From assembly GCA_965215565.1 (NCBI GenBank), contig CBDCDZ010000004.1, forward strand, positions 1,504,001 through 1,568,000: a stretch of 64,000 nt of DNA. The letters are read 5' to 3'. Origin of the DNA: Trueperaceae bacterium (GTDB taxonomy: Bacteria > Deinococcota > Deinococci > Deinococcales > Trueperaceae). A program made the translations under genes and the position numbers. Position 1 is the first letter of the stretch. Each line of letters begins with the position of its first letter. Below the pieces are notes generated by a model. The model was not told the origin of the DNA. It saw nothing but the letters and a program-made list of their open reading frames with translations, and searched no databases. Below are positions 26,561 through 54,530 of the stretch, piece after piece.

Positions 26561-26591
26561 AAGCTCAGAGTTTTTTGCTCTATACAACGCT

Positions 26592-30493: not shown

Positions 30494-30501
30494 AAGTGAG
30501 T

Positions 30502-32808: not shown

Positions 32809-32858
32809 AAACTCTCTAGGGCAGCCCCTTCGGTTCAAACACTATTTAACGGTGTACG

Positions 32859-34007: not shown

Positions 34008-34017
34008 CGAAGTGTGT

Positions 34018-34317: not shown

Positions 34318-34862
34318 ACCGCGAGCTGCGCCGCGTCCCCGGCGAAGTAGGCGAGGACGAGTTCGGTGTTTCTCTCTACCCCGAGCTTCTCGCGGGCATG
34401 CCTGAGGTGCTCACCTGCCGTATAGGGGATGATACCTAAGGATTCGGCTAACATCTCGACGCTCTCCCCGTACACCGTGCGGCGCAGCACCTCGCGTTCT
34501 CTCGGAGTGAGCGGGCTCTTGGCCGGTGGTGGTCCTTCGTAGAAATGCTCGCCGATAGCAACGCGGGAGAGGTAGAAGGCTAGGGCTCGAGCTGGTGGCA
34601 GGCTCGAGGTGACCAACAACCCCTGCGGCTTCAGATCGAGTAAATCTAACAAGTAGTGGATGGAGCGGTTGGCAGTCACGAGGAGCACGGGCAGAGGTAG
34701 CCCAAGTGCGCTCAATACCTTTAGGGCGTAGCCGGGGCGGTCATCGAGTACTAAGCTCACCGGCACGTCGAAGTCGAGCGTGCTCAGACGCTCGGCAACC
34801 GCATCCTTCATGCGCCCCGAAGCGGCGTGGATACTCAGATGACTCTGAAGCTGAGTTGACAC
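34314..34862 (-). CDS. LuxR-type HTH regulator with a degenerate receiver-like N-terminus
   Basis: LTPREREVL...LAESLGI...H...AREKLGV. Confidence 0.8.
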   Translation of the reverse strand: MSTQLQSHLSIHAASGRMKDAVAERLSTLDFDVPVSLVLDDRPGYALKVLSALGLPLPVLLVTANRSIHYLLDLLDLKPQGLLVTSSLPPARALAFYLSRVAIGEHFYEGPPPAKSPLTPREREVLRRTVYGESVEMLAESLGIIPYTAGEHLRHAREKLGVERNTELVLAYFAGDAAQLAV

Positions 34863-34888
34863 AAGCTCCTCCCCCTTAATGTGCCGCG

Positions 34889-35701: not shown

Positions 35702-35778
35702 ACCCTAGCATAATTCTCATTAGTATGAGACCCTTACAATGAGTCGCATGTGACGAACTGAGAACGAATGATGATAAT

Positions 35779-36042
35779 GTGTTCAGACCCGATAGTGAGG
35801 AGCTTTCACGTGCTGCGTTCGCCTATAGGAAGCGTGTCGGCAAACACCTCATGAGGCTGCGTAAGCAGAAAGGGTTGAACCAAGACGAATTTGCTTTCAA
35901 CGCAGGGCTTCATCGCTCCCATGTCGGTAAGATTGAGAACGCTACTCTGAACGTCACCCTCGAGTCGCTCTACAAGTACGCGCACGGGCTCGAGATGGAT
36001 GTCTGGGAGATGTTGCGAATCGTCAGCGAGGATGAATTTTAA
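35779..36042 (+). CDS. XRE-family HTH regulator (possible RM controller protein)
   Basis: LRKQKGLNQDEFAFNAGLHRSHVGKIEN; palindrome TCTCAT-TAGT-ATGAGA at 35715-35730 upstream. Confidence 0.85.
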   Translation: MFRPDSEELSRAAFAYRKRVGKHLMRLRKQKGLNQDEFAFNAGLHRSHVGKIENATLNVTLESLYKYAHGLEMDVWEMLRIVSEDEF

Positions 36043-36534
36043 TCCACCTCAGAGACGCATTAGCACCCCTCAAAATGCATGACGTTACAAGGGTAACTAC
36101 GCCGATTTGGGAAAGGCTTCGGAAGAAGAGAAGAGGGCTGAGATAGTGTGTGAGCAAGATTCCAACCCTTGAAAAGATTGTACAAGCGGCTAAAGGTCTA
36201 AGTCTAAGAAAGCAGAGGAAAGCTCTACAAGAATGCAAACCCATGTTTTCAAACAGCTTTATCATCACCTTGGTGGTGTACTAGAAGTTGGCGGGCTTTT
36301 GCTACCTACGCCTAGAAGATGTTGGAAGTCGCGGTATTCTTCGGCGTCACTGTTCCTGCACCTTCAACCTACCCAAGATTACGATATTCACCGCTTTTAA
36401 GAATATTTTAGCGGTACTTTGGCTCCGCATTTATGGCGCTGAGTCATCAATTCTCAGCGCTTCATCTTGCGGGCGCGAGGTTAAGCTGAAAGCACATAAT
36501 TTCAGCCGCCGAAAGGACGCACCTAGACCTCGAT

Positions 36535-39215
36535 ATGACGACCCAACGCGATAAACTCACGCTCGCCCAACTCGAGACCTTCCTCCTCCAAGCCGCCGAC
36601 ATCCTGCGCGGCAAGATGGACGCCAACGACTTCAAAGAGTACATCTTCGGGATGCTCTTCTTGAAGCGCATCCCGACCAGTTCGCTGCCAAGCAGGAAGA
36701 GATGAGGCAAGTTTACAGCCATCTTTCCGAAGAGCTAGTGGACGAACTGCTGACGGAGAAGACAACCTACGGCGAGGCGTTCTTTGTTCCAGAAGAGGCT
36801 CGCTGGAATAGGATCAGAGATTTTCAGCACAATATCGGTGAGCAGTTGAACGTCGCCGTTTCTGCCCTTGAAGAGGCTAACGACACGTTTGAGGGTGTTC
36901 TCAAAGACAAGATCAACTTCAACGCGGCGAGTGGCGGCAAGCGTCTCGTGTCAGACGGACGGCTCAAAGACCTCATCAACCACTTCAATACCATCGTTCT
37001 CACTAACGGCAACTTCGAGTTCCCCGACCTCTTGGGCGCAGCCTACGAGTACCTCATCAAGTTCTTCGCTGACAGCGCTGGTAAAAAGGGCGGCGAGTTC
37101 TACACGCCTGCCGAAGTGGTTCGCCTTATGGTGCAACTCGTCAAGCCCAAACAAGATATGTCCGTGTACGATCCGACCATTGGCTCGGGAGGAATGCTCA
37201 TCCAGTCGGCGCAGTACGTCGAGGAGCAGGGGGAAGACCCTATCAAGCTGAACCTCTTCGGGCAAGAATCCAACCCGGCGACCTGGGCGATCAGCGTGAT
37301 GAACATGATTTTGCACAACCTCGCCTCCGCGAGCATCGAGTACGGCGACACGTTAGAGGAACCCCTACACGTTAGGGACGGGCGTCTGCGGCAGTTCGAC
37401 CGCGTTCTAGCCAACCCACCCTTCTCCCAAAACTACACCCGCGCCAACATGGACTTCACCAACTGCTTCCCCTACGGCTTCGCGCCGGAGACGGGCAAGA
37501 AAGCCGACCTCATGTTCGTCCAGCACATGATCGCCAGCCTCAAGGACACCGGCGTCATGGCGACGGTCATGCCGCACGGCGTGCTCTTTCGGGGCGGCAA
37601 AGAGAAGCAGATTCGCGAGGGGTTCGTCAAAGCGGGCATCGTCGAGGCGATTATCAGCCTACCCCCCTCGCTCTTCTACGGCACGGGCATCCCTGCCTGC
37701 ATTCTCGTCATCAACAAGAACAAGCCCGACGGCTTGCGCAACAAGGTGCTCTTCATCAACGCCGACGCAGAGTACGCCGAGGGCAAGAAGCAGAACAAGC
37801 TGCGCCCCGAGGACATCGAGAAGATCGACTGGGTCTACACCCACAAGCACGAAGCGCCCAAATACTCGCGCCTGGTAGACATAGAAGAGATCAGAGACAA
37901 CGACTACAACCTCAACATCTGCCGCTACGTGGACAACACCCCGCCCCCCGAACCCGAGGACGTGCGGGCGCACCTGGTCGGCGGCGTACCTAAACAAGAG
38001 GTGCAAGCGCAGCAGAAACAGCTCGACAAATTCGACATTATGCCCCTGCTCGTCTTCCAGGAGCGCGACGCCGAGTATTACGACTTTCGGGACGAGATCG
38101 GGAGCCGTGACGACCTCAAGCGCATCATCGAAGAGGACCAGAACGTCAGGGCGACCTACCGCCGCATGATCGAGCGGCTCGAAGGTTGGTGGGTAAAAGC
38201 CCGCGACACCTTCGCCCGCCTCGCCCCGCCGAACGGCGCGGACTACCCACAAGCTAAGCTCCCCGACGTTCGCGCCGACCTGCTCGCCTCACTCAAGGCG
38301 ACGCTACAAGAAGAGCGCGTGCTCGACGACTTCCAGGCGGGCGGCGTCTTCGCCAACTGGTGGGACGCCATCAAGTACGACCTCAAAACTATCGTAGCGA
38401 ACGGTTGGCACCATACCCTCATCCCGGACGAATACCTGATACGCGCCTTTTTTCAAGCCGACCAGGACGCGCTCGACATCCTCGCTAACACGCTCAGTGA
38501 CCAAGAGGCGCAGCTCGACGAGGCGGTGCAAGAGGTAGAATACGAGCCCGAGGAAGACGAGAAGGTCACACCCGCCGTGGTCAAGAACCACCTGACCAGC
38601 GAGATCAAGTCCCTCAAAGAGGACGGCGGTCCGCTGCTTTCCGGGGCGGAAGATGAGTTAGCAGGTTACGAGGCGCAGCTTGGGGCGATTAAGGATGCAG
38701 AAGGCGCGATCAAGAAGACCAAAGCCAAGATCAAAGAGCGTGAGGTGCAGCTCGCTGAGAAGCTGCTGCTGAAGCGCTACGGGGTAGAAGAGGTCACGGC
38801 GGACCTGAATGCTCGGCTCAGGCAGGTGCAAAAAGAGGTCGAGGCGTGGGAGGCGAAGCCGGGCGGTGATGCGAAAGAGGAGAAAGCGCGGAAGAGTGAG
38901 GTGAATAAGCTGGGTAAAGATGTGAAGGCGCTTGAGGGGCAGAGGGAGCGGGCGGAAGGGTTGTTTGGGCAGGTTGGGGGGGTGCTTACGGAGGAGGAAG
39001 CGAAGAATCTCATTCTGCAAAAACACCACGACCTTGTTAGAAGCACGCTTGAACGCTATATGGATCAAGAAAGGCGCATTCTACTCAGTAGTTTCAACAA
39101 CCTGAATGAGAAATACTCTACTTCAGCCTATGAATTAGAGGCTGATCGAGAGGACACAATGACTCAGCTTCAGGTAATCATGAAACAGCTAAATTATACC
39201 GAGGCGGTAGCGTGA
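36535..39215 (+). pseudogene. hsdM: Type I RM methyltransferase with a frameshift near 36672
   Basis: ATG 36535 gives [46 protein letters not shown]; the frame then shifts into the 36702 ORF with GEFYTP, DPTIGSGG, NPPF. Confidence 0.9.
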
Positions 39216-40549
39216 GAGGTTGGAAAAGGCAAAAGATAGGGCAGTTATTCGAGTACACAATTCCAGGAGATTGGGGCGGAACTCCTTCTACGAATAGCTC
39301 TGTGCCCGTAGTTCGTTCGACTAACTTTAGGAACGATGGCAGGCTAGATTTGAGCGACATCGTGTACAGAAGTGTTAGTCCCAAAAGCCTGAGTGTGCGT
39401 GAAGTAAATCAAGGAGACGTGCTCATTGAAAAATCAGGAGGTAGCCCAAACCAGCCCGCAGGTAGAGTTGTTTTCTGCGATCAAGAGTTTGGAGGCACGT
39501 GTTCCAACTTTATAGAAGTTGCCAAGATCAAACAAGGTTTCGACAACAGGTTTATTTTCTACCTCTTGTATTTCCTTTACCAGACAGGTCTCGTACTTAA
39601 ATACCAGCAGCAAACAACTGGGATAATTAACTTTAAGCTCAATCAGTACATGGATGAGTTTGTGGAAGTGCCTGGTTCAAAACAAGAGCAAAAAGAGATA
39701 GCTGATGTATTAACAAATATAGACACCGCCATCACTCAAACCGAGGCGCTTATCGCCAAGTACCAGCGTGTCCGCACCGGGCTCATGCAGGACTTGCTGA
39801 CGAAAGGCGTTGACAAAGAGGGGCGCATCCGCTCCGAGGAGACGCACGAGTTTAAGGACTCGCCGCTGGGGAGGATTCCGGTGGAGTGGGATATGGCATC
39901 TATAGCTGATACTGCTAGCAAAAGCCAGGGCTCAACTTCAATTGGACCATTCGGTAGCGATTTACTTGCTAGCGACTATAGGGACCAAGGAGTTCCGGTC
40001 GTTTTTGTTCGAGATATTAAAAGCGATGGTTTCATTTGGAAAAGCGAAGTATACCTGGATCAAGAAAAAGCGGAGAAGCTCGCTGCACACTCCGTACTTC
40101 CGGGTGATGTAATCGCCACAAAAATGGGATTACCGCCCTGTATCTCATGCGTTTACCCGTTAAATATGCCTCCCGGCATCATTACCGCTGATGTAATTCG
40201 ACTTCGTCCAAACTTGGAGATAGCCAATGCTGAATGGCTTGCTCAGTATCTAAATTTTACACCCGTGCGGAATCAGGTTAAAGCAATTACAGGAGGTGTG
40301 ACGCGACCAAAGGTTACGCTTAGAGACTTCAGAAATTTACTCATTGCTCTTCCTAGAATTAGCGAGCAATCTCAAATCCTAAGTATTTTGCGCAAAAATC
40401 AGCAACGAGTTGAGTGCGAAGAGGAGTACGTAAGTAAGCTTAATCATCTGAAAAGTGGTCTCATGCAAGACCTCTTAACAGGTAAAGTTTCCGTTGACGC
40501 GCTTCTTAACCAAACTGAGTCTCAAACACCGGAGGTTGTCGCCTCATGA
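39212..40549 (+). CDS. hsdS: Type I RM specificity subunit
   Basis: Two TRDs with EQ..I...L / GLMQDLLT conserved repeats; KDSPLGRIPVEW. Confidence 0.93.
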   Translation: MRGWKRQKIGQLFEYTIPGDWGGTPSTNSSVPVVRSTNFRNDGRLDLSDIVYRSVSPKSLSVREVNQGDVLIEKSGGSPNQPAGRVVFCDQEFGGTCSNFIEVAKIKQGFDNRFIFYLLYFLYQTGLVLKYQQQTTGIINFKLNQYMDEFVEVPGSKQEQKEIADVLTNIDTAITQTEALIAKYQRVRTGLMQDLLTKGVDKEGRIRSEETHEFKDSPLGRIPVEWDMASIADTASKSQGSTSIGPFGSDLLASDYRDQGVPVVFVRDIKSDGFIWKSEVYLDQEKAEKLAAHSVLPGDVIATKMGLPPCISCVYPLNMPPGIITADVIRLRPNLEIANAEWLAQYLNFTPVRNQVKAITGGVTRPKVTLRDFRNLLIALPRISEQSQILSILRKNQQRVECEEEYVSKLNHLKSGLMQDLLTGKVSVDALLNQTESQTPEVVAS

Positions 40550-43500
40550 TCAAGCCGGATAAGAAGGTCACGCCTAAGCGTCAGAGTGAGCGGCGGAGCG
40601 TTGAGTTGCCGCTGCTAGAGCAGCTCAGGGGCTTGGGCTGGGAGGTGCTGGACCTGGAGATGAAGCAGGAGCCCGCCGACTCGTACCGGGAGAGCTTCAC
40701 GCAGGTCATCCTGGAGCCTCGGCTGCGCGAGGCGCTGCTGCGTATCAATCCTTGGTTGGAGAGCAGTCAGATTACGGAGTTGGTGCGGCGCATCACGCCC
40801 ACGACGGGGAGCCTCTTCGAGAACAACCAGCATATTTTAGACCTGCTCTTAGACGGCACGCCGCTGGACAAGAACCACCAGACGGGCGACCAGAGCCCGA
40901 CGGCTCGCTACGTGGACTTCGACCACATCGAGAACAACGACTTCTTAGCGGTCTGTCAGTTCAAGGTGCGTATCCTCGGCACGGAGAAGCACATCATCCC
41001 GGATGTGGTGTGCTTTTTGAACGGGTTGCCTATCGCCGTCATCGAGTGCAAGTCGCCCAAAGCGCAAGACCCGATTCCCGAAGCGATTGACCAGATGCTG
41101 CGCTACAGCGAACAGCGCGATGAGGGGAGCGAGGGCAACAAGACGCTCTTCTACTACAACCAGTTTTTAGTCGCCACTTGCCGTAACGAGGCGAAGTTTG
41201 GCACGATCAGCAGCCGCAGCGCCAAGCACTACTTCCGCTGGGCTGACCCCTACCCGCGCGAGCTTGACGACATCCGCGAGGGGCAGGCGAGCCCGAACGA
41301 CCAGTTGCGTCTCGTGGCGGGGATGTTTGACCGCCGTAACCTCTTGGACCTCATCCGCGTCTTCACCCTCTTCGTGGAGGATGATAAGGGTAAGCGCATC
41401 AAGGTCGTGGGGCGTTACCAGCAGTTTAGAGCGGTCAAGAAGGCGGCGCGGCGGCTTTTAGATGGCAATAACAAACTACAGCGCGGCGGCATCATCTGGC
41501 ATACGCAGGGCTCCGGCAAGTCGCTCACGATGGTCTTTTTGGTGCGGGAGATGTACCTGCAAGACACGCTCAAGAGTTGGAAGGTCGTCTTCGTCACGGA
41601 CCGGACGCAGCTTCAGGACCAGCTCACGAGTACGACCAAAGCCATCGGCAAGACGGTGCAGGTGGCGGACAGCATCAACAAGCTCAAGGCGCTGTTGCCC
41701 ACCGACTCCTCGGACCTCGTGATGGCGATGATCCATAAGTTTCAGGAGCGGGAGTTGAAGACGAGCGTCTTTGAAGAGATGAACCCAAGTACGAACATCC
41801 TCGTGCTGACGGACGAGGCGCACCGCTCGCAGTACAGCTTGCTGGCGGGGAATCTGAACCGAGCACTGCCCAACGCCACGGAGATCGGCTTTACGGGCAC
41901 GCCCATCGACAAAACCGAGCAGAAGTACGGCGACTACATCGATAAGTACACCATGCGGCAGTCTATCGAGGACGGGGTGACGCTCGAGATCGTCTACGAA
42001 GGACGCACCAACAACGCCGAAGTGGACGATCAAGGCAAAGCGAACGAGTTGTTTGAGGATGTGTTCAGCGAGTACGACTTGGGCGAGCGGCTGCAAGTGT
42101 TGGGCTACGGTGGCAAAGACGCTTTCTTGGAGGCGCAAGAGGTCATCAACGCGAAAGCGCTCGACATGGTCAGGCACTACGCCGAGCATGTGTTTCCCAA
42201 CGGCTTTAAGGCGCAGGTGGTGGCGACCTCTCGCGAAGCCGCGCACCGCTACGGGCTAGCGCTCAAAGACGCCCTCTCAAGAGTCCACGCCGAACTGGAG
42301 CAGAATAACCCGCTCAACGTCGATCTGAAGAGGTTACAGCAACTTGAGGTCGCGGTGGTCATTTCTGGCGGCAGTCATAACGACAAGCCTTATCTCAAGA
42401 AGCACGCCGACGCTACGAGCACAGGAAGGACATCGCCGGCTTCAAGCTCGCCTTCGGCAGCGAAAACGAGGACGGTGTAGAGGGTAACGTCGGTTTTCTC
42501 GTCGTGAACAACATGCTACTAACTGGGTTCGACGCGCCCATCGAGCAGGTCATGTATCTGGACAAGGTCAGCGTGGCGCACAACTTGCTACAAGCTATCG
42601 CCCGCGTGAACCGCGTCGGACCGGATGGGAAGGACAAGGGCTTTGTGGTGGATTATGTGGGCGTCGGTCATCACCTGAAACGAGCCCTAGATGACTATCA
42701 TGAGCGCGAGCAGAAGGAGATTCTCGAGTCGCTGAGCGACCCAGCGCAGGAGTTAGAAGACCTCAGACAGGCGCGTGATGCGGTCTGGGCACTCCTGGAG
42801 CGGTCGGGCGTCCACGACCTGCACGACTACGACGCCTTCTATGACCTCTTCTACGACGAGGAGACGCGCTTCGAGTACATCTTGGCGTTCCGTAAGTTCA
42901 CTAAGGCGTTCAACCTCGTGCTCCCCCGCAAGGAGGCGCTCGACTACCTGGAGGAGTATCTGCAATTCGCCGAGATCAACGTCAAGGCGATGCAGCACCT
43001 GCGCGACAGCCGCCTCAGCATGAAAGGTATCCCCGAGAAGCTGCGCAAGATTACTGACGCCCACCTCAAATCTCAGGACATCGAGCAGAAGGTCGCGCCC
43101 ATTTCAATTATGGATGACGATTTCTTACAGCATGTCGGTAAGAAAAAGCGCACCAAAACCAAAGCCGCCGAGATCGAGCACGGCATCCGGCACCATATCG
43201 ACACGCACCTTGACGAGGACCCTGAACTCTACGCCTCGTTTGCCGAAGCGCTCCAGGAGATCATCAAGACTTTTAAGGACAACTGGCAGAAGATTTACGA
43301 GGAATTGGAAAAGCTCCGGCAACGCATGAAGAACGCGGCGAAAGAGCCAACCTATGGTCTGCACCGCAAGAAGCAGATGCCCCTCTTTCGCATTTTGCAT
43401 AAGGAGATTTACGATGACCAGCCACTAGACAGCGACAACATCTCGTCGCTCGTACCCCTCACGCAGGAGATCACACTCATCTTGGAACGTGAATTGCAGC

Positions 43501-43679
43501 TCTCAGGCTTCTGGGACAACGTGATCGCCCGCAACAGGCTTAAGGGCGAACTTCAGAAAACCCTTCTCTCACCTGAAAACGCTAAACTACCTAATGTGGT
43601 CAAGAAGCGTAACGAGGTCATCACGCGGGTCATGGAGGTGGCGGAGCGCAACCACGACGCCATCCTCTACGCGGCGTAG
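40546..43679 (+). pseudogene. hsdR: Type I RM restriction subunit with a frameshift near 42410
   Basis: PD...NGLPIAVIECK, WHTQGSGKS, DEAH, FTGTP; the second frame has MLLTGFDAP and QAIARVNR. Confidence 0.9.
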
Positions 43680-43685
43680 GTCGCT

Positions 43686-44366
43686 ATGAAACTTAACTAC
43701 AGCGTCGTCTACTCTGACCGCCGGAAGACGGTGGGCATCACCGTCGAGCGTGACCGTTCAGTCGTGGTGCGAGCCCCCCGCCGCGCCACGGCGGACCAGA
43801 TCGAGCGCGTGGTGCAGCAGAAGAAGCTGTGGATTTATGAAAAGCTACGCCATCCGCAGAAGTATAACCTCGCCGAAGCGAAGCCTAAAGAGTTCGTTTC
43901 TGGCGAGTCTATCCTCTACTTGGGGCGCAACTACCGCCTGGAGATCGTCGATGACGACTTTGCAGGCGTGCGCTTCGAGAACGGCTTTTGCCTATCGCGA
44001 CAGTCTCAGCCGGACGCGCAAGTGTTCTTGGAGGCGTGGTTCAAGGAGCGGGCGGCGGAGAAGATCACGCCTCTAGTGCGAGAGGTCGCAGAGAATTTAG
44101 GGGTAGCCTATAACCGCATCATGATCTCTGACTTGCAGTACCGCTGGGGCTCGTGTACGCCTAATGACAACCTCAACTTCAACTGGCGGCTGATCCGAGC
44201 CCCGATGTTTGTTATTAGGTACGTCGTCGCGCACGAGCTGACGCATCTTTTAGAGCCAAACCACACACCTCGGTTCTGGAACATCGTTCATGTACAGGTG
44301 CCGCGCTACGCTAGGGCTAAAGCGTGGCTGAAAGCGCATGGACTGACATTATACAAAGGGGTCTAG
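43686..44366 (+). CDS. YgjP/M48-like metallo-hydrolase typical of type I RM loci
   Basis: WGSC, YVVAHELTHL..NH...FW. Confidence 0.9.
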   Translation: MKLNYSVVYSDRRKTVGITVERDRSVVVRAPRRATADQIERVVQQKKLWIYEKLRHPQKYNLAEAKPKEFVSGESILYLGRNYRLEIVDDDFAGVRFENGFCLSRQSQPDAQVFLEAWFKERAAEKITPLVREVAENLGVAYNRIMISDLQYRWGSCTPNDNLNFNWRLIRAPMFVIRYVVAHELTHLLEPNHTPRFWNIVHVQVPRYARAKAWLKAHGLTLYKGV

Positions 44367-44420
44367 CATGTGCTCCTTCACCGCAAGGATGCTTGGATCG
44401 TCCTGATGGTTTAACTCAGC

Positions 44421-45023
44421 TCATAGCGGTCTAACAACATCATTCTCTTTCATTGTGACTATATGGTCGATGTTTTTGAAGTTTTGGGCGTTCGAAAAAT
44501 CTGCTGTGGGGTCTCGTTTTGCGAGCCGATATAGCATCAGTCTGAGAAAAAGAGCTCGCCAGTCTTTATTCTGCTGCTTGCCTATTTTCTTAGTCTTGGC
44601 AACCGATTGAGGAAACGCTCGCCAGAGTACGCCCCAGGTAAATTCGCAATCAAAGTAGGCTTTTCTGTAACGATAGTGAGTTGTTCGGCTAACTTTCCAA
44701 CGGCTACACACCCTGTCAATAGAGCGAGAATTGTAGTGCTGATCAAACAGAATCAAGGCCATAAGCGGCTTATTGAGCTTGAGAGGACGACCTCGCCCGT
44801 CGAGTTCAAAGATTTTAGATATAGTGCTTGGATTCCCTCGTTTGTAGTTAGTTGACTGATTTTTTGACGCAAGGCTGCCACAGGGGTGATGGCATTGGCG
44901 GAGCCAGTTCGGAAAATTGATTCTAGTTGGGTGACGACCACCGCGCTGATACGCTGTTGCGGCAGATCGGTGTGGACGGAAGGTCCTACAGCCATGAGGT
45001 TTGTGGAAACTCTCCGTATGCAC
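44421..45023 (-). CDS. Possible Hin/resolvase-type HTH protein divergent from tnsA (true start probably well downstream of 45023)
   Basis: GRGRPLKL...SIDRVCSRWKVSRTTHYRYRK resembles the GRPxKL...SxxxIAxxxGVSRxTxYRY pattern. Confidence 0.45.
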   Translation of the reverse strand: MHTESFHKPHGCRTFRPHRSAATAYQRGGRHPTRINFPNWLRQCHHPCGSLASKNQSTNYKRGNPSTISKIFELDGRGRPLKLNKPLMALILFDQHYNSRSIDRVCSRWKVSRTTHYRYRKAYFDCEFTWGVLWRAFPQSVAKTKKIGKQQNKDWRALFLRLMLYRLAKRDPTADFSNAQNFKNIDHIVTMKENDVVRPL

Positions 45024-45575
45024 TCTTATGTTCGGAATGTTGTTGAGGAACCTTGTCAGATAACGTACAAAGATGGCGCTGGAAAGACTCGCCGTTACAC
45101 TCCCGATTTCCTCGTCGTATACGAATTGCCGGAGGAATATAGCTACTCCTCCACTGTCCTCTATGAGATTAAGTGGTCTGGCGACTTACGTGAGAACTAC
45201 GAAAAATACGAGGAACGCTTTGCGGCGGCATATAAGTATGCCGCTGAGCGTGGCTGGCGCTTTCGTGTAATTACCGAGAAGCGCATAGACCGTTATCATC
45301 GCTCCGCCACGCTTTTACATCGCTTCCTGCGCCGCAAACTCGAATACGAACACGTGAGATACGTTCTCGATACTGTCACGTTAGAGCCGGGCATCACAGC
45401 TCACGATTTTCTAGATGCGGAGTTGAGCCCCGTCGATCCCTTTAACTTGCTTACGACTATCTGGACGTTACTCGCGCGTGAGCAGATCAGCGCGGAGTTA
45501 GAGGGCGGCATAACAAATCGGACACCCTTATTCCCGGCTCGCGCCGGAAATCCTTGGGCTAGACCTGTCCTATGA
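44886..45575 (+). CDS. tnsA: TnsA-like endonuclease
   Basis: EEPCQITY...RRYTPDFLV...YEIK...AAERGWRFRVITE (PD-(D/E)xK TnsA pattern). Confidence 0.88.
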   Translation: MMALAEPVRKIDSSWVTTTALIRCCGRSVWTEGPTAMRFVETLRMHSYVRNVVEEPCQITYKDGAGKTRRYTPDFLVVYELPEEYSYSSTVLYEIKWSGDLRENYEKYEERFAAAYKYAAERGWRFRVITEKRIDRYHRSATLLHRFLRRKLEYEHVRYVLDTVTLEPGITAHDFLDAELSPVDPFNLLTTIWTLLAREQISAELEGGITNRTPLFPARAGNPWARPVL

Positions 45576-48083
45576 GCCGTTTAAGACTGTTGGCGCGCAC
45601 CAAAGTGTCTTACGCAGGCTATGACTGGGAGATCGTAACAGTAGATAACAGACAGAAGCTTACATCTCTAAAGCGCGAAAATGGAATCACTTGCCTCGCG
45701 CCGACTTCGGAACTCGGTTCACCTGGTCGACATAAAATACCTGTTCCAAGCGAATACGAAGCGCTGCCTGAAAACATAAAGAATCTTTACGGTGATCTAG
45801 TAGCCTTAGACCGAACCGCAAAGGACAAGGAGCGCTTAGCCAAAAAAAACAGCTGTAGTAGGTCCACCGTCTACCGCCAACTCGAGAAGGCAAGAAGAGG
45901 TCCTGAAGAACTCAAGCGGAAACGGCGTGCGGACTTCGGAAACTCCAGCTTCGAGACGAGAGTCAAAGATATTATTGAGGCCGAAGTCAAAAGGGCACCT
46001 GCGTTTAGGAGCAACAGGGAAATCGCCAAACGTGCATTGAACGAGATGCACAAGCCGGACAAGGACGACAAGTACATAGAGAAAATTCCGAGCAAGTCGA
46101 CAGTACTTCGGTATGTGAGTCGGGAGCGCGGCAAGGTGCCTTACGATCCTTCCAAAGACGCACCCCATGTCAAACCGATACACCCCTTTGATGAACTCGA
46201 GATGGATTCGACTCAGGCAGATACCTATGTCGTATATGACGACTATAAGGAGGGTCGCCCCTGGCTTACATCAGTCGTTGAGGTTCTAACCGGTCTGCGG
46301 TGGATACTTGTCACGCGCGAAGAACCTAGCTCGCGTATAACAGGGTTGCTTATCATCATGGTCGTATTCGGTTTGGACCTCCCGCACGTTAAAAACAAAC
46401 CTCCGAACGGTTTATTTGAAAAGCTGTTGGTAGTGGCTCACCTCAGACTGCCAACCTTAACCTCCAGGTTGTAGCTAACGAGGAACATATGCAGGCAGAT
46501 CAGGCAGATAAGGTGCATGTGCTGGGCTTTAGAGAAGGACAAGGTCTTTCTGACAAAGCGGGCGAGGCGCTGACGAATTGTGTTGTTGAAACGTTCAACG
46601 TGAGCCGTAAGTCCAGTTTCTTTGCCGACAGCCTGATGTTGCTCGTCGGGGATAACAGCTTGATAAGCTTCCCAAAAGTCACTGAAGACGAGACCTTTTT
46701 TGTAGGCGTTAGGTACGTTGCCCCAAAGCTTCTTGCACGTAGCGCTACCGCGTCCTCCTATGACGCAAGCAACGACTTGCCTGGTCTGTTTGCAAAGAGC
46801 CAGCCATATCCAGAGCTTTTTAGCTTTGCAGCTTACAAACGACCACATTTCGTCGAGTTCAAGCTCTACAGCTCCAGGTACTTTAGGAGCTATGAGTGTA
46901 TCGCTAAGGGGAGGCGTTATCTTGGCTTTTTTTGAGCCAGGCGTCCAGTGTGTTACGTGATATCCCAAACGTTCTAGCGACACCGCGCATACTAGAGCGC
47001 TCTTGATAAGCTTTAAGAATCTCTTCCTTTCTCTCTTTACTGTAGCCGTAATTTGGGTTCTCTAAACTCGCTCGGTTGCATTCCTTACAGTGGTAGCGCT
47101 GTTTGCCATTAGGGGCTTTGCCGTTCTTCTTTACGTTCTCGCTGCCGCAGTGATAACACTGTACTGTCTGAGTAACCATCCCTTAGCTTAGCAGTTCGTG
47201 TTGAGCCACTACCAAGCTGTTCACAGATAGCGGCAAAGCGCTGAAAAACCTGAGTACAGAATCGCTGAATGAGAAGCATGATCTAACACTAAAATACCGT
47301 CCAAAGGGAAAATCCTGGTATGGCGGCACGGTAGAGACACTGTTCAATAACGACAGCGAATTCGTGAAAGAGTTTATGGGAGCTGTGGTCGATAGCGACG
47401 GCAGCGGTCGCAAGCGGAAATCAGGCAAAGCTGAGTACACCTTTGAGGAGTATAAGCGCTTGGTAGAGGGATACACTTACGATCATCTCAATATGACTCC
47501 TCGGACCGGCGAGGAGTTGTCTCCACTCGACAAGTTTTATGTGCTCCTTGTAGACCCTCCCGGCGGGGCAGGCTTAGGTAGCCTCGACCAGGTTCCGAAA
47601 GAGGAACACCAGCAGTTCAAACTCGACTGTATGCCGTTCATCACGAGAACAGTATCAAAGGATGGCGTTCGAGATGATTACACTATCTATAAGAGCGGTG
47701 CGCAAAGACGACTTATCGGCAAAAAGGTGGTTGCACGCTATGACCCGTCGGGCTATACCGATGTTATGCATGTCTGGGACGAGGAGAGCGCAGCCTATAT
47801 CGAATTTAGACCGAACTACGAAAGTCTTCCCAAGATGACACGGAAGGATCGCAAACGGGTTGTCAAAACTTTGAATAAGCTAGGTGTTGAACCTAGCATG
47901 GAAAGCATTGCTGAGAAGTATCGTGAGCTTGTAGAACAGGAGGCAGTCGAAGCCACGCAGCGAGCACCCGCCGAACTCACTTCTACTGAGGACGACACTC
48001 CCCACCCCCGCCATATTCGGGCATACGAGCTAGAAGACGACCTCGGCGACGAGATGCCCTACATTAGCCACAGGGACGGCTGA
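45572..48083 (+). pseudogene. tnsB: TnsB DDE transposase interrupted by IS1 (572 aa after IS removal)
   Basis: HTH SRSTVYRQL, PSKSTVLRY, EMDSTQAD, rejoined KLFTDSG, GGTVETLF, Mu-like C-terminal RYDP; both halves are in frame across the 8-bp TSD. Confidence 0.9.
46429..47213 (-). mobile_element. IS1-family element (785 bp) with insA (46904-47179) and insB (46438-~46930)
   Basis: IRs GGTAGTGGCTCA / TGAGCCACTACC; 8-bp TSD AAGCTGTT (46421-46428 and 47214-47221); zinc ribbon plus HTH; ELDEMWSFV...SDFW...ERFNNTIRQRLARFVRKTLSFSK; A7 slippery site. Confidence 0.95.
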
Positions 48084-48084
48084 G

Positions 48085-49053
48085 ATGCGTAGGTCTGCTC
48101 TCGCAACTCACTACCTGGATGCACCTCTCGAGAAACGTATCGAACTTGTGGAGAACCATCCCTTCGTCGGCTGGCCTGCTGCTCACGACTTCTTTAAGCG
48201 AATAGATAGGATGCTTCTTGCTCGCCGGAAACGGTACCAAAAGCACCCAAATATGCACCTATACGGAAGAGCACACCACGGTAAAACAGAATGCTTGCGT
48301 GAGCTCCAGAAGCGTTATCCAAGAGGCGAGTTTAAGGGCGGATACGAACAGAGACCCGTCGTGTACCTACAGGCGGAGAGTGGAGACCGACCCGAAGACC
48401 TGTACAAGCGTTTGCTGGAGGAACTGAACCTGATGCTAGCCGCAACGACCAAAGATGAGGTTAGGAAACAGCTTATGGTACTCGTTCCCGCAATGGGCGT
48501 GAGGGTGCTGGCGGTCGATGAAATGCAAGATTTGGATGCAGGCGAAGGAAGCCGGTTCAAGCCAGTGATCAATCACCTCAAGGCGAGGAGCAACGACCTC
48601 GGGTTAGTTGTTGTTACAGCAGGGGTCGAGGGCTCGAGCGACGTCGTGCGGAATTCGGATCAACTGAAGAGTAGGTTCAAAGAGTTTAAACTACCTACCT
48701 GGCAGGTAAGAAAATTGTCGGACGAGACCAAGAAAAAGATGCCCGAAAAAGAGCTAGAGGAGATCAAAGGAGAGATTAGGGGGTATAGGCTATGGCTTAG
48801 AGGTATGGAATCGCATATGCCCTTGCCAGAGGCATCGAAGCTCGAAGATTTGTGGGAAAGCATTATCTTCCTAGCCGAATTCATGAGTCAGAACAGTAGT
48901 AAGACCCCTAAAGAATTTAAAGAGAAGCCGAAGCGCGGAGCACCGATAGGCTACGTCCGCGACCTCATTGTGGGTGCGTGTGTTCTGGCAATGGAGCAGG
49001 ACTGCTCAAAAATCATTCCAGATCACCTAGAAACCGTGGCGAGCAAATGGTAA
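48085..49053 (+). CDS. tnsC: TnsC/TniB-family AAA+ ATPase
   Basis: Walker A GRAHHGKT, Walker B VLAVDEMQ, QLKSRF. Confidence 0.88.
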   Translation: MRRSALATHYLDAPLEKRIELVENHPFVGWPAAHDFFKRIDRMLLARRKRYQKHPNMHLYGRAHHGKTECLRELQKRYPRGEFKGGYEQRPVVYLQAESGDRPEDLYKRLLEELNLMLAATTKDEVRKQLMVLVPAMGVRVLAVDEMQDLDAGEGSRFKPVINHLKARSNDLGLVVVTAGVEGSSDVVRNSDQLKSRFKEFKLPTWQVRKLSDETKKKMPEKELEEIKGEIRGYRLWLRGMESHMPLPEASKLEDLWESIIFLAEFMSQNSSKTPKEFKEKPKRGAPIGYVRDLIVGACVLAMEQDCSKIIPDHLETVASKW

Positions 49054-50744
49054 CTTTCGATCTCCGTAAGGATGGCTGGATACCTGTGCTAGACGGCGAC
49101 ACTTGGCGGCTCGTCGGTATACGCGAAGCTTTCGCAAAAGGCGACGAACTACAGCTTGCCTGTGCAGACCCATTGGAAGAGGTCGTTATCGTCAGGCTGC
49201 TCGGGGAAGTCGTGAGAGGAGCCGCTGGGGGATGCGTAACCGAAGCCTCGCCCAGCTACGAAAGGATAAGCCGCTACCTCACACGCTATCCGCTCTACTT
49301 CATTCACCCTACGCATCCCTTCTACCAGATATGGGACCTTACGTGCAATACAAGCTGGATAACGCTCCATCCTTCCAAGAACAGTATGGACACGCGGGTC
49401 GTCCACGACCATAGTCGCGTCGACAGGCCCCCTCCCCTCACGGAAGACGAGGCGGTGAGACTCCACCTGCAGGCTCAATCGTTCGCGCCGACCGCCTTAC
49501 GCAGGGGAGGCTATGGCTACACAGTCAATGGGCCGCTCCTTAATCTCGTTGTGACACACGTTCTAGGTCCTAACCTTACAAGCACGATATTTGCAAATTC
49601 ACCGCGGTGAGAACGCGAGGTTAAACCCATATGGCGAACGAAGATAAACACGATTGCGTCTGTTCTCGCCGCCCGCGACAACAAAGTTGTGTTGAGCCCA
49701 TACACGCCTCTCACACGGATGCTTCGTTTCGAGCAAGATGGCTACACGTTCAAAATCGGGCACGCGCACGGGCTTCGCCCTAACCGCTTAAATGACCCGA
49801 TGCTCTCATTCACTGAGCGGGGCAAACCTCTACCTTGGAAGGCGTGCCACGATAGCCTCGCTTACCTGCAAAGAGTCCACCGCATTGGTGGCGTAACTCC
49901 ACTCGTAACATCGCGGGCGAGGCAAGCCGTTGAGAACCCCAACGACTATCGTGTTGCCGTCACCTACATGGTCGCCGATAAAGCTAAGCCTGTGACAGTG
50001 AAGAGGTTTACCCTTCCTCTGGTAGTCCCAACAGGCGAGTTCGCGAACAGAGTTTGTGATTCTTTAGAGGTAGCGCTCAAGGATTTGAAGAGGCGTTTGC
50101 GGTACTTAGGTATACGTGAAGAACAAATCGAAGACGCAAGCCGGACTCTAAGGACGCGCCTAGCCGACACATTACCCCAGCATTTAAGATCAGGAAGCGA
50201 GGCGTTGTGGAAGGAGGAAGTGAGGACAACTATGACCGAGGTTGAGCAGCATATCAATGTTCTAGCATGGCCCAAACCTCAACCAGCAAAGCGACGAGAG
50301 CCAAGTTCACGCGATGAAAGCTTCATTCGATGGTTGACTGTATTGTCCCAACCCGAACGCAGGGCGTTTAAGACTTTACCCGAGTCGCCGCGCTACCCGA
50401 CTTACCGATTTAGGCGTTTTCTGTACGAGAGAGATGGCCCTGAAGTCTTGCGCGCCTTTTCACTCGTCGCGCACTTGTACGCGAACAATGGCGGCTCCGG
50501 CGACATGCCACTCGCCGAGCGACTCGCGACGGACGCCTTAGATATTCCGCTCGCGCATCTCTCAGCAGCCGACACCTGGGAGGTTCTCTCCAGCATCTTA
50601 CGTAGCACTATAGGCGACCTCAAAGAACCGCCCGACTGGGTATATCTCCTCTACGACCTGAGGCGCTGGAATGGCCCAACAGGTCAAGTCGTAAAAGCAT
50701 GGAAATCAGATTATAAGCGTACGTTTCAGAGGAGGCACGCATGA
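49047..50744 (+). pseudogene. cas8e: Type I-E Cas8e(Cse1)-Cas11(Cse2) fusion with an in-frame TGA at 49608-49610
   Basis: FDLRKDGWIPV...RLL, HPTHPFYQ, GPNLTSTI..N, PIW, YTPLTRMLR, NDPM (Cse1). C-terminal FIRWL...LVAHLYA...DWVYLLYDLRRW...V..AWKSDY (Cse2). The two ORF-track pieces share one frame. Confidence 0.82.
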
Positions 50745-51850
50745 GAGTCGAGATTCATACTCTGAGGATGTTGGGGCCAAGCTCTGTCAATAATGGGAAA
50801 GACAGACTGCCCAAACACTGCACCTACGGTGGGGTTCGGCGCACTCGCGTAAGTGCGGAGGCGCAGAGGCACGTGATCAGACAAGCGTTCAGAAAGTCGC
50901 TGGAGAGTTCCGCACCGTCCACGCGGATGCTTCTCGGCGAGCTTAGAGGCGCGCTTAAAGCTCGCAAGGAGTTACAACCGCCTAACGGGGTGCGGATCGA
51001 CCTTCTGGCCAGGAAGACGCTCGCGTTTCTCAAGCTAGAGGCCGACGAACACGGAGTGAGCAGGGTCCAGGTGAGATATGCTGAGGGAGCGTTCGCCCGG
51101 CTCGCCGAGGTCGTAGCGACCCACCGAGAGACCATCTTAACCAAGGAGAAAGTCACAAAGAGGCTGGAATGGGAGCTAGCAAACGCCCTTTTCGGTCCGA
51201 CGAATACCGAACTTCACGTGTTTGGCCGTTACCTCGCCGCCTTCCCGGATGTCGAAATCTTCTTATGTCTCGATGTCGCTAGCGCAGTATGCGTCAGCGC
51301 TTCGCCTCTGGAGGAAAACTTCTTCTCCTCAATCGATGACATTGCGAGTAAAGACCCTAACTCGCCCTACGGCATTGCTCACACCAACACCAACTACTTC
51401 AGCTCGCCAAATTTCTACGGATTCACTTCTATCGACTTGGCGCAACTCTGCGCGAACCACGGCAAGGAGGGTGTCGAACAGATCGTTAAGACACTCATCG
51501 ACCTTGTCGTCTATCAGTTTCCCAAAGCTAAGCATACGTCGTCAGCACCGTACGCGGTTCCTTACCTCGTGACGCTTGCAGCGGGTGAGGGGGCATGTTC
51601 GCATTCGGCATTGCAGGCGTTCGACGAGCCAGTAAGGTCCAGTGGGGGTATTAGAAAGCGGGCAGTGAAACGCTTCCATGAGCACTGGGAACGAAGCCAC
51701 AGCACATTCGCGCCCGCTCGCTATGCGACGCTCGCCACTGCGAGCTTAATCGACATACCCGAAAACAGTGTTCTTAACCCAATGTCTTATAACAACGCGA
51801 AAGAGGAGGTGATGGCGTGGACAACCCAATCGCTTACACGCTGCTCCTAG
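50741..51850 (+). CDS. cas7: Type I-E Cas7 (Cse4/CasC)
   Basis: IHTL....PSSVNNGKDRLPKHCTYGGVRRTRVSAEAQR, FGR, FFSSIDD. Confidence 0.9.
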   Translation: MRVEIHTLRMLGPSSVNNGKDRLPKHCTYGGVRRTRVSAEAQRHVIRQAFRKSLESSAPSTRMLLGELRGALKARKELQPPNGVRIDLLARKTLAFLKLEADEHGVSRVQVRYAEGAFARLAEVVATHRETILTKEKVTKRLEWELANALFGPTNTELHVFGRYLAAFPDVEIFLCLDVASAVCVSASPLEENFFSSIDDIASKDPNSPYGIAHTNTNYFSSPNFYGFTSIDLAQLCANHGKEGVEQIVKTLIDLVVYQFPKAKHTSSAPYAVPYLVTLAAGEGACSHSALQAFDEPVRSSGGIRKRAVKRFHEHWERSHSTFAPARYATLATASLIDIPENSVLNPMSYNNAKEEVMAWTTQSLTRCS

Positions 51851-52449
51851 TCCTATCTGGCCCAATGCAGTCGTGGGGCGGGCGCACCTACACCGAGCGG
51901 ACAACCAACCTCACTCCAACTAAAAGCGGTGTCGTCGGGCTCATAGCCGCAGTACTAGGACGACGTCGAGATGAGGATATAAGTGACCTCGCCACTTTAA
52001 GAATGGGCGTACGCGTGGACCGGGCAGGGCTCCTCGAGACGGAATTCATCACCGGCCAAAATATCATCTCGGCGGACGGCACGAAGGTCCATGCCAGCTC
52101 GTCAACCGTAAAGCACTACCTAGCGGATGCTGTTTTTCTGGTCGGACTTGAGGGTGCACGGTGGACGCTCGAGTCTATTCGCGAGACGGTTGAGATGCCA
52201 CGCTTCCCTCTTTACCTCGGGCGACGTGGGTACGTTGCAGACAGACCTATTTATCTCAGCGACGGATTTCAACAAACGAACCTCGAGAGTTCGCTTAGAG
52301 AGTACGAACTCGTTGGACCTCGACGAACGGACGCATTTGAGGTCGAAGTTGAGGTAACTTCGGGCGGTGATTTGGTCTTCGACCAACCTATAGGACCTCG
52401 GCGCTTCGGTCCGCGGCGCGTAAAACGGTACAGGCTATGGCGGTTGTGA
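51817..52449 (+). CDS. cas5: Type I-E Cas5 (CasD)
   Basis: LLLVLSGPMQSWG...PTKSGVVGLIAAVLGRRR, YLADAVFLVGL, PLYLGRR. Confidence 0.95.
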   Translation: MDNPIAYTLLLVLSGPMQSWGGRTYTERTTNLTPTKSGVVGLIAAVLGRRRDEDISDLATLRMGVRVDRAGLLETEFITGQNIISADGTKVHASSSTVKHYLADAVFLVGLEGARWTLESIRETVEMPRFPLYLGRRGYVADRPIYLSDGFQQTNLESSLREYELVGPRRTDAFEVEVEVTSGGDLVFDQPIGPRRFGPRRVKRYRLWRL

Positions 52450-53039
52450 TACTGACAGAATTCGATCTCAATCTATCCAATCCCAACGTGAGCCGTGACG
52501 TTTTCGACAGATACAGTGCACATCAAACGATGAAGCGGCTGACGGAAAGTTCTATTGGACGTGCGCTCTGGCTCCTGCGCGCGAGAGAGAGTTCGGCGCG
52601 GCTCGTGGTACAGACCGAAACGCCCATCTCTGAGGAAACTGTCAACGCTCTTATCAAGTCAGGTTACGCTTTGCGGGTACGTCAGCAGGCGCTGATTCTT
52701 GAGTACCCGCGCGATGCTGTGCTTTACTTCTATCTCGAGGCGAACGCGGTGCGCCGTGGAAAGATCGTCCGGCCTGCTATTGAGCGAGAAGAGAGGTTGA
52801 GTTGGCTAGAAGAGAGGCTAAAAGGCGCCGGAACCAAACTCATCGATGTTGAGGTGTTAAGAAGTCACACATGTGACGTTGTTCCAAAGGACTACAAGCT
52901 CTATACGGTAACCTATCACGGTTTGATATGCGTCAAGAACCCAAAGGAGGCTTCAAGGTCGTTGCGCAAAGGCATAGGACGCTCTAAGCACCTCGGATGC
53001 GGTCTGCTTCTTACGAAGGCAGTAGACTTAGGGGTATAA
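52437..53039 (+). CDS. cas6e: Type I-E Cas6e (Cse3/CasE)
   Basis: DRYSAHQ, LEAN, C-terminal GIGRSKHLGCGLL glycine loop. Confidence 0.92.
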   Translation: MAVVILTEFDLNLSNPNVSRDVFDRYSAHQTMKRLTESSIGRALWLLRARESSARLVVQTETPISEETVNALIKSGYALRVRQQALILEYPRDAVLYFYLEANAVRRGKIVRPAIEREERLSWLEERLKGAGTKLIDVEVLRSHTCDVVPKDYKLYTVTYHGLICVKNPKEASRSLRKGIGRSKHLGCGLLLTKAVDLGV

Positions 53040-53066
53040 AATTTTCGCGAATTCCATCATAATAGA

Positions 53067-53157
53067 GTTGTTTCCGCACGCGCGGGGGTGAACGGCCCAG
53101 GTTGGCCAGACCGGGATCCAGTCCCAATATATTCCCCGTGCGAGTGGAGACGGAACA
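53067..53157 (+). CRISPR. One-spacer mini-array: repeat 53067-53095, spacer 53096-53128, degenerate repeat 53129-53157
   Basis: GTTGTTTCCGCACGCGCGGGGGTGAACGG (29 nt, I-E hairpin), spacer CCCAGGTTGGCCAGACCGGGATCCAGTCCCAAT, then ATATTCCCCGTGCGAGTGGAGACGGAACA; starts 27 bp after cas6e. Confidence 0.88.
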
Positions 53158-53163
53158 AAAATA

Positions 53164-53922
53164 TCAGCGAGATAAATAATACAACCACTCAAACGCTGTC
53201 AAGCGCCAGTACCGATCTTTTAGATTAAAGCCAAAGCTGTGACCCGCGCTCTGGGATTCGATCATCTTCTGAAGCCTCTTATTATAACGCAAGTTGTCCA
53301 GCAACTGCCTAGACTTAAAATGAATCGTATTGCGAGGCGAAGAGATAACTGCTTCAATAAGAGCGTCGTGAAAGTGGTAAAGGTCATCATCAATCCATCC
53401 GACGGGTTCGGTAGGCGCGTCTGCTAAATCATCACCACAGCAGTAACAGTAGCATTCAGAGTTCCACCGTTGCTCGTGACGGGCGTAGATATCAACTTGA
53501 GCACCACACTCCGCACAATCATCTCGAAGAAGACAGCGATGAATGCTGCACACTTCAACGACATCAACGTACCAAACTTTTCGAAACCACCTGAACTCGA
53601 AACAGCAGAGCGGGCAGAAGCGCGGCGTTTTCCGAATCACTCGCGACGCCGAACCAGAACAACCCAGTTCTCCTACTCGCCTCGGAATCAGGGCGTCCAA
53701 GATGATTGACTCATCGGCCTGAACTCCATCGGCTAGGACGGAATAAAGATTCGACCGCTTTGCTTTGATGATGTCAGGTGCGTTAGAAATACCATAAACC
53801 CTATGAGATTTCTTCAACCGAGCTATGAATCGTTCGACTGAAAGACCGTTGCCGTAACTCAGTCTGGCAAGGTAGGAAGTAAAGGCTTCGCCTTCATCGG
53901 GTTTGTCTCTAAACGCCCACAC
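53164..53922 (-). CDS. tniQ: TniQ-family target-selector protein
   Basis: PDEGEAFTSYLARLSYGN, RFCPLC, W...VEVCSIHRCLLRDDCAECG, CYCCGDDL zinc-finger pattern. Confidence 0.9.
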   Translation of the reverse strand: MWAFRDKPDEGEAFTSYLARLSYGNGLSVERFIARLKKSHRVYGISNAPDIIKAKRSNLYSVLADGVQADESIILDALIPRRVGELGCSGSASRVIRKTPRFCPLCCFEFRWFRKVWYVDVVEVCSIHRCLLRDDCAECGAQVDIYARHEQRWNSECYCYCCGDDLADAPTEPVGWIDDDLYHFHDALIEAVISSPRNTIHFKSRQLLDNLRYNKRLQKMIESQSAGHSFGFNLKDRYWRLTAFEWLYYLSR

Positions 53923-53939
53923 TACATATCATGTCATTA

Positions 53940-54017
53940 GTGTAGACTGCAAAGGTGAGTTTCAAGTACTGTTCGCAAATAACTCGATTCAATTCGCAAA
54001 TAGCGTGATTTTTGACA
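53940..54017 (-). mobile_element. Tn7-like transposon end with tandem TnsB-site repeats
   Basis: Minus strand reads TGTCAAA-AATCACGCTATTTGCGAA-TTG-AATCGAGTTATTTGCGAA (15/18 identical repeats); terminal TGT at 54017. Confidence 0.75.
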
Positions 54018-54530
54018 AGAGCCAACCCCAAACGCCAAGAAACCCTCATCGTCGTCGGACTTGACCCCGGCTTAGCCAACTTGGGCCTGGGCGCGATTCG
54101 CGAAACGGGCAAAGAGGTCACGCATTTAGGCAGCACGCTGGTACGTACAAACAGCCGCACGGATCAAGCGGAGCGTTTGGCGGCGATTTACACCGAGATG
54201 ACCGACTTCTTGAAGGCGCATCGCCCCGACGTGCTCGCCATCGAAGGGCAGTATTTTCACCGCCAGCGCGACGTGGCGTTTAAGGTAGGGCAGGCTTTGG
54301 GCGTGTGCCTTTTAGCCGCGCAGCAACAGGGCGTCGAGACCGTTGAGTACGGACCGATGCAGGTCAAGCAGGCGCTCGTGGGCACGGGGCGCGCGAGCAA
54401 GGCCCAGGTGGGCTACATGGTTCGCGCCATGTTAGGTCTCACCCAGACCCCCGAGAGCCACCACGTCGCCGACGCGCTCGCGCTCGCGCTGACGCATCTG
54501 AGCGCGCGGCAACTGCAGTCGCTGGGTTAA
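54012..54530 (+). CDS. ruvC: Holliday junction resolvase RuvC
   Basis: GLDPGLANLG, LAIEGQY, YGPMQVKQALVGTGRASKAQV, DALALAL. Confidence 0.96.
   Translation: MTRANPKRQETLIVVGLDPGLANLGLGAIRETGKEVTHLGSTLVRTNSRTDQAERLAAIYTEMTDFLKAHRPDVLAIEGQYFHRQRDVAFKVGQALGVCLLAAQQQGVETVEYGPMQVKQALVGTGRASKAQVGYMVRAMLGLTQTPESHHVADALALALTHLSARQLQSLG

Follow-up and report, generated by a model that had tools for sequence, protein, structure and literature searches.

Two questions are raised by a locus in a Trueperaceae bacterium (Deinococcota): (i) whether a Tn7-like transposon has taken over a type I-E Cascade as its target selector; and (ii) whether such an arrangement recurs elsewhere. The locus lies in a stretch of 64,000 nucleotides (the window; positions 1,504,001 to 1,568,000 of contig CBDCDZ010000004.1, assembly GCA_965215565.1), in which a first-pass annotation had proposed a candidate type I-E CRISPR-associated transposon (CAST) homing to ruvC. 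We consider it very probable that the element is a Tn7-like CAST that uses a Cas3-less type I-E Cascade for RNA-guided homing. From the genomes compared, we infer that it is a real, decayed member of a family of TniQ-containing, Tn7-like type I-E CASTs. Its genes are as follows.

44886..45575, forward strand: tnsA (Pfam PF08722), with a PD...ExK motif (D74, E94, K96)
45572..48083, forward strand: tnsB (Pfam), interrupted by an IS1-family element
46429..47213, reverse strand: the IS1-family insertion sequence that splits tnsB, with an 8-bp target duplication
48085..49053, forward strand: tnsC, TniB-type AAA+ (Pfam), Walker A and B intact
49047..50744, forward strand: cas8e-cas11 fusion of 565 codons (Pfam Cse1 and Cse2)
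50741..51850, forward strand: cas7e (Pfam CT1975/Cas7), highly divergent
51817..52449, forward strand: cas5e (Pfam and NCBIfam)
52437..53039, forward strand: cas6e (Pfam), His29 and Gly-rich loop conserved
53164..53922, reverse strand: short tniQ of 252 amino acids (Pfam), with zinc-finger cysteines and without a TnsD-type C-terminal extension

Every component named in the first-pass annotation, from tnsA to the mini-CRISPR, the convergent short tniQ and the Tn7-type end, was recovered, with every gene product clearing the curated Pfam cut-offs. The E-values were 8e-19 (TnsA_N), 3e-7 (Mu-transpos_C), 9e-34 (TniB) and 3e-11 (TniQ) on the tns side, 3e-19 (Cse1), 2e-6 (Cse2), 4e-47 (CT1975/Cas7), 5e-30 (Cas5) and 1e-20 (Cas6e) on the cas side, and 3e-43 for the flanking RuvC. 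NCBIfam, used for naming the Cas subtype, assigned all window Cas genes to I-E families and none to the I-F Cascade (Cas8f/5, Cas7f, Cas6f); the five genes cas8e, cas11, cas7e, cas5e and cas6e are accompanied by a 29-nt hairpin repeat and a 32-nt spacer, as subtype I-E demands. The Tn7-like set (tnsA, tnsB, tnsC and tniQ/tnsD) is likewise present, though with tnsB broken; it is intact in a relative, G071. From tnsA to cas6e every gene junction abuts or overlaps, the cas8e ATG (49047-49) lying within the final tnsC codons (tnsC stop 49051-53), and downstream of cas6e come a one-spacer array, tniQ on the opposite strand and the Tn7-type end. The run of overlapping frames thus has the junctions first described, but it is not intact, with IS1 in tnsB and a TGA in cas8e.

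Cas7e has at most 33% identity to its best 150 non-self representatives, and the nearest solved relatives of TnsC are Tn6677 TnsC (the best) and ShCAST TnsC. The predicted TniQ model (predicted local distance difference test score, pLDDT, 77.7) resembles V-K, I-B and I-F CAST TniQ structures; a predicted TniQ-Cas6e complex scored 0.28 against a mark of 0.32. Within cas8e-cas11, an in-frame ATG at 50232 is preceded by a Shine-Dalgarno-like sequence and could give a separate Cas11. The absence of cas3, cas1 and cas2, also claimed at first, held: the host's Cas3, Cas1 and Cas2 gave 0 tblastn matches in the 64-kb window. They sit in one separate canonical I-E locus, 2.8 Mb from the window element (G000:C4:4335000-4354999), with cas3, cas1, cas2 and two arrays of 10 and 7 repeats; this locus is a possible source of spacers in trans.

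The array, the end and the target are laid out as follows.

53067..53095, forward strand: CRISPR repeat 1, with an I-E-type 7-bp hairpin, unlike the host canonical repeat
53096..53127, forward strand: homing spacer of 32 nt, matching ruvC
53128..53156, forward strand: degenerate terminal repeat with a weak hairpin (-4.4 kcal/mol)
53968..54017, reverse strand: transposon end, with an 8-bp terminus starting TG (at 54017, reading inward) and two TnsB-type sites 21 bp apart
54012..54530, forward strand: host ruvC, the target (Pfam RuvC), with the insertion just past its native start codon
54054..54088, reverse strand: protospacer in ruvC (54085-54054; 24/32 match) with its protospacer-adjacent motif (PAM) AGG (54088-54086)

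The ruvC protospacer is the spacer's best match in the 4.49-Mb genome and points toward the transposon end, 36 bp away, giving a PAM-to-end distance of 68 bp. No shuffled spacer equalled the ruvC match, either among 2000 in the 200-bp flank or among 200 in 20 kb. Two genomes of the same genus, G001 and G002, have an empty site in which ileS and ruvC are ~1 kb apart, and their homology picks up again at 54018-54020, that is, at the transposon end; the orthologous protospacers there carry an AAG PAM in place of the window's AGG. Two contigs of run X5 also begin matching exactly at 54018, and a contig of run X4 spans the end-ruvC junction, bearing a related end at the same site. At up to three mismatches, the window spacer has no match in the other 363 of the 364 Deinococcota genomes. 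The last six bases of the transposon end supply an in-frame TTG start, which probably keeps ruvC readable. The spacer mismatches, together with the atypical repeats, may stop the host Cas3 system from attacking ruvC.

The array also folds as a whole: the stretch 53067-53156 forms one long hairpin through pairing of repeat 1 with its degenerate partner, repeat 2 (-44.9 kcal/mol, z -3.7), a fold that could make the guide less readily processed. A promoter scan close to the array gave matches at chance level only.

The same synteny is found elsewhere in the phylum. Among the 364 genomes scanned, TniQ was present in 68 and Cas7e in 111; DNA was examined at 20 loci picked for nearby hits or a short TniQ and at 10 low-scoring Cas7 loci, with the other TniQ loci assessed by coordinates only. 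At nine further loci tniQ stands next to genes for I-E Cascade, with no Cas3, Cas1 or Cas2 match in the DNA fetched around any of them. The other 11 of the 20 chosen loci are not CASTs (one canonical I-E system and ten without Cas matches), and no match to tns or tniQ was seen at any of the ten low-scoring Cas7 loci (L126-L135). At three of the latter, L126 (G210), L127 (G328) and L128 (G268), the I-E Cascade genes are divergent and the stretch fetched shows nothing matching Cas3, Cas1 or tns; in L127 cas6 stands ahead of cas8, as in the second of the two groups described next.

The elements fall into two layouts. Group A, with the window layout, comprises G071 (complete), G001 (a remnant) and G018 (no tns genes seen); its TniQ is 252-297 amino acids long. 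Group B has the order tnsABC-tniQ-cas6e-array-cas8e-(cas11)-cas7-cas5 and comprises G056, G048, G040, G271, G281 and G279, the last cut by a contig end. A single TniQ was seen at each locus. Cas11 forms a fusion with Cas8e in three elements (the window, G071, G281) and stands by itself in two (G018, G271); it was not detected in four of the six group B loci (G056, G048, G040 and G279). G071 looks intact and two-ended: all genes (tnsABC, cas8e-11, cas7, cas5, cas6e and tniQ, at G071:C2 ~2,998,280-3,006,870) are open, the Cas8e-Cas11 fusion is an intact 590 amino acids, and the two ends lie ~49 kb apart, flanked by a 4-bp repeat when both are read from TG. A single-sequence fold of the fusion was unusable (pLDDT 35.9). 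Right after the far end of G071 is a second near-type end (L117:15100-15190; G071:C2 ~3,047,100), a tandem insertion at the same site.

Searches of low sensitivity with single proteins returned only the window TnsC itself for TnsC, and itself plus two distant Cas8e for the Cas8-11 read-through; word-pattern scans for close relatives, also insensitive, found nothing or G001 only. A plasmid search gave Cas7e matches of ~30% identity among the matches listed (15 of 215 records).

The flank was available for eight relatives, and in seven of them the adjoining host gene is matched by the last spacer, with 2-8 mismatches. Five of the targets are gene 3′ ends, namely those of arginase (2 mismatches), a dam-like methylase (3), rtcB (3), pilT (6) and rqcH/NFACT (8), where arginase and rtcB are presumed names given from translated motifs; the others are a comEA-like gene (6 mismatches) and comM (7 of 27). 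Shuffles matched as well as the real last spacer in 0/200 trials in six relatives and 2/200 in one. Over the eight pairs including the window, the PAM is AAG in six, AAA in one and AGG in one (the window); AAG is a canonical I-E PAM. Their 43 mismatches include 19 at positions 6n, 33 at 3n and 4 in the seed; in I-E Cascade, the base at each sixth position is flipped out. The insertion site of G001 is empty in the window's genome, where homology breaks at the TG end. The window and seven of eight relatives combine a short array with a guide to adjoining DNA, an I-E-type PAM and the right orientation. The claim of homing to ruvC stands with respect to the spacer match 36 bp from the end, but the family has at least eight target genes, of which ruvC is one. 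Non-last spacers have no convincing target in the loci examined. A last-spacer hit in G279 proved to be a near-duplicate spacer in its own array, not flank, and was left out of the count. Spacer 1 of G271 matches tnsC sequence (L106:9699) weakly, with 10 mismatches and the PAM AAA, and is possibly aimed at related transposons.

Several observations weigh against RNA-guided homing by these elements. The window match is weak by itself, as one in 20 shuffled spacers reaches 8 mismatches somewhere in the chromosome, and the pair has one mismatch in the seed. G040 has no spacer matching within 60 kb around its locus. Protospacer-to-end distances are not constant, being 36 bp in the window, 23 in G018, 41-43 in G056, G071 and G001, and ~44 in G048, which lacks a TG terminus, with no fixed value for G271 and G281. 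A 5-bp target duplication was found nowhere (window, G071, G056 or others); in the window none can be read because the far flank is lost. Homologous loci that routinely carry cas3 or lack tns linkage had been named at the outset as telling against the proposal. When this was checked, the outcome favoured the proposal: in the DNA fetched, cas3 was seen at none of the nine loci, and tnsB and tnsC lie within the same operon in six. The DNA fetched for G001 and G018 has no tns genes, and G279 is cut by its contig end.

What else could place an I-E Cascade in a Tn7-like element? TniQ or another protein might pick the site, leaving Cascade as cargo that represses the flanking gene, in a manner like CRISPR interference as in type IV-A, or protects the insertion site from competing elements. 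Repression of the DNA-uptake genes among the targets (comM, comEA, pilT) could help a mobile element, Cas-less Tn7-like elements of the window's genome likewise adjoin comM and a comEA-like gene (names from motifs), and protospacer-to-end distances range from 23 to 44 bp. We nevertheless think this improbable, because the protospacers lie at most ~45 bp from the junction and point toward it, the 3′ end of a gene, a poor location for repression, holds five of the eight, and eight different genes are targeted, each following its own element's spacer; moreover, the sole TniQ of these loci is short and has no TnsD-type DNA-binding extension.

Still less credible is cargo in the form of an ordinary, since decayed I-E defence system, whose flank-matching spacer was acquired by accident after insertion, despite the several lesions of the window copy and a host canonical I-E system whose Cas1 and Cas2 could add spacers. 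Such an accident is largely refuted by seven of the eight relatives. Two distinct gene orders both have the cas genes firmly built into the tns operon, the spacer that matches is in every case the last (oldest) in the array and departs from the present host sequence at wobble positions, as though derived from another host's ortholog, and the element Cas7 is set apart from the host canonical Cas7. An assembly artefact or chimera, which near-singleton proteins in large databases might suggest, deserves almost no credence: a 6167-nt contig of run X1, which may be the source sample, covers 47189-53355 with 2 letters differing, runs X3, X4 and X5 from two other studies contain near-identical pieces, including the X4 contig across the end-ruvC junction, and G071 has the same layout.

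The reading that we favour, a Tn7-like CAST directed by a Cas3-less I-E Cascade, implies a pathway that can be drawn by analogy with characterised I-F3, I-B and I-D CASTs (PMC11656645, section 7). Cas6e would cut the array transcript and the last spacer would serve as homing guide. Cascade would then bind its protospacer, which has an AAG-type PAM and lies within a conserved gene of the host, with the short TniQ bridging its PAM-distal end to TnsC. TnsC would recruit TnsA and TnsB for cut-and-paste insertion ~36-44 bp past the protospacer. By this route the window element would have inserted immediately past the start codon of ruvC, to decay later.

The window copy carries several lesions. The IS1 element of tnsB has two further copies in the chromosome, 98.9% identical; without it, tnsB is a single 572-codon open frame with DDE-like motifs near D211, D287 and E324. 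The 565-codon cas8e-cas11 frame has a premature TGA at codon 188 (49608-49610). In TnsA, Ala36 replaces the second Glu of an ESxxE motif present in seven of seven other aligned TnsA, a position which we take to be that of Tn7 E63. No far transposon end was found by motif, weight-matrix or similarity scans, and the native ruvC upstream motif is absent from the genome at up to three mismatches. A far-end candidate near 24025 was rejected as weak and without target duplication. Immediately after ileS (14214-15690) is a broken rloB with an IS5-type element on its 5′ side, which may mark the deletion that took the far end. The window copy is decayed and unlikely to move unaided. The homing signature of the RNA-guided CAST first proposed recurs in seven of eight testable relatives; its function is inferred.

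The empty ileS-ruvC site and the junction at 54018 imply an island of ~40 kb (14146-54017), most of which is probably cargo.

14146..44885, no strand: probable cargo, absent between ileS and ruvC in G001 and G002, with its far boundary undefined

Pfam assigns to the cargo the broken rloB and IS5-type element, together with patatin-like, phosphatase, EAL/GGDEF, Fic, TetR and LuxR proteins. The stretch 32861-35513 (lipoprotein/LuxR cargo) is common to the cargo of four other Tn7-like loci of the same genome. These Cas-less loci lie on the same chromosome (G000:C4 near 0.83, 1.90, 3.02 and 3.71 Mb), at sites that include glmS, comM and a comEA-like gene, named from sequence motifs. The stretch 27677-29665 matches, at 89.5%, a region beside the G001 I-E CAST remnant, and a 3-kb block (29768-32728) is 95% identical to G000:C4:28463-31474. 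A 976-aa protein of no Pfam family (17288-20218, reverse strand) is coupled to the patatin-like gene. Directly upstream of tnsA is a type I restriction-modification cluster with a YgjP-like gene (36702-44366), its hsdR frameshifted near 42480. A divergent open reading frame with a weak helix-turn-helix match (44421-45023, reverse strand) overlaps the tnsA start, and a similar stretch lies beside another Tn7-like locus; it is a possible regulator.

Whether Cascade was captured once or twice bears on the origin of the family. In a quick TnsC tree (36 rows with long branches, 2 rows >500 aa left out, no outside references), group B falls within a well-supported clade with Cas-less elements, away from group A, and joining the two groups was rejected (approximately unbiased test, p-AU 3.9e-8); the split therefore implies two transposon backbones. 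In a similarly quick Cas7 tree of 62 rows, in which the position of the frameshifted G018 Cas7 was disregarded, the window, G071 and two metagenome proteins group together (SH-aLRT, approximate likelihood-ratio support, 92), group B is a clade (support 98), how A and B are related is not settled by this tree, and the element proteins group apart from the host canonical Cas7. The independent capture of I-E Cascade first proposed needs correcting on one point: there are two unrelated backbones, not one. The data do not distinguish two captures from a single one with a swap of modules.

Taking these points together, we lean slightly towards a wider proposal: that Deinococcota harbour an undescribed family of TniQ-dependent I-E CASTs, formed by two captures (or a capture and a swap) on unrelated Tn7 backbones, homing by RNA only and each to a different conserved gene, with a remodelled Cascade in which Cas11 is fused to a shortened Cas8e or, in four of six group B loci, lost to leave a four-protein I-E integrator, and with at least one member (G071) still functional and reprogrammable. 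I-E is the best-studied Cascade, and a natural TniQ-coupled I-E system would therefore add a programmable integrase of a new sort, whose PAM is AAG-type. If true, it would show what a Cascade must change to recruit TniQ, and ten elements with eight different homing genes and two backbones would allow direct tests of how homing guides arise and of repeated capture.

The pairing of I-E Cascade with TnsA and TniQ and without Cas3 was not found in the literature searched: a full-text search, with bioRxiv supplements, subscription journals and patents outside its reach, gave no paper on such an element. One point speaks against novelty, since Koonin and Makarova 2024 (PMC11656645) name 'I-E' among Tn7-like captures, citing three papers; two of these sources (one as a preprint) describe no such system. 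In their available text, a Tn7 target-selector survey and a Tn7 cargo survey each have 0 occurrences of 'I-E', and those CASTs that have been confirmed in a heterologous host have V-K, I-F3, I-D or I-B effectors (10.1101/2025.08.27.672191, available part). The 2025 classification, in its accessible sections, lists I-F3, I-B, I-D, I-C, IV-A, Mu-linked I-A and an I-E5 'lacking TniQ-TnsD' with active Cas3 (PMC12669027), and its supplement, as far as available, gives I-E4 as a PD-DExK variant.

The link of I-E to telomeric transposons in Streptomyces, mentioned in the first-pass annotation, is borne out by the literature; that CAST (variant I-E5) also links I-E Cascade to TnsB and TnsC without cas1-cas2, but according to the available text it is without TniQ, its Cas3 is active, and it is a one-ended element of telomeres whose ends are not flanked by protospacers (10.1101/2024.11.13.623437; PMC12669027). 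The present family, in contrast, has TnsA and TniQ and no Cas3 (the window itself has TniQ and lacks Cas3); its elements are found within chromosomes, with the protospacer placed at the junction. An Rpn-associated I-E Cascade without Cas3, described in the accessible part of its source as a putative non-Tn7 CAST with some self-targeting spacers (10.1101/2021.08.16.456562), is partnered by an Rpn-family PD-(D/E)xK protein and not by TnsABC and TniQ. I-B CASTs use a second protein, TnsD, for homing (PMC11656645), whereas the elements described here show only one TniQ per locus and homing is apparently RNA-guided; the PAM-to-end distance of I-D CASTs is 75 +/- 6 bp, against 68 bp in the window element. 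The closest parallel is with I-F3 CASTs (Tn6677, Tn7016, V. parahaemolyticus), which share TnsA, TnsB, TnsC and TniQ, a Cascade without Cas3 or Cas1/2, a short array with a homing guide and insertion beyond the PAM-distal end, at 49 bp in the available text of PMC12774636. The Deinococcota elements differ from them in the I-E subtype of their Cascade, an AAG-like PAM, a TniQ of the length given above for group A, and a shorter distance, mostly 36-44 bp.

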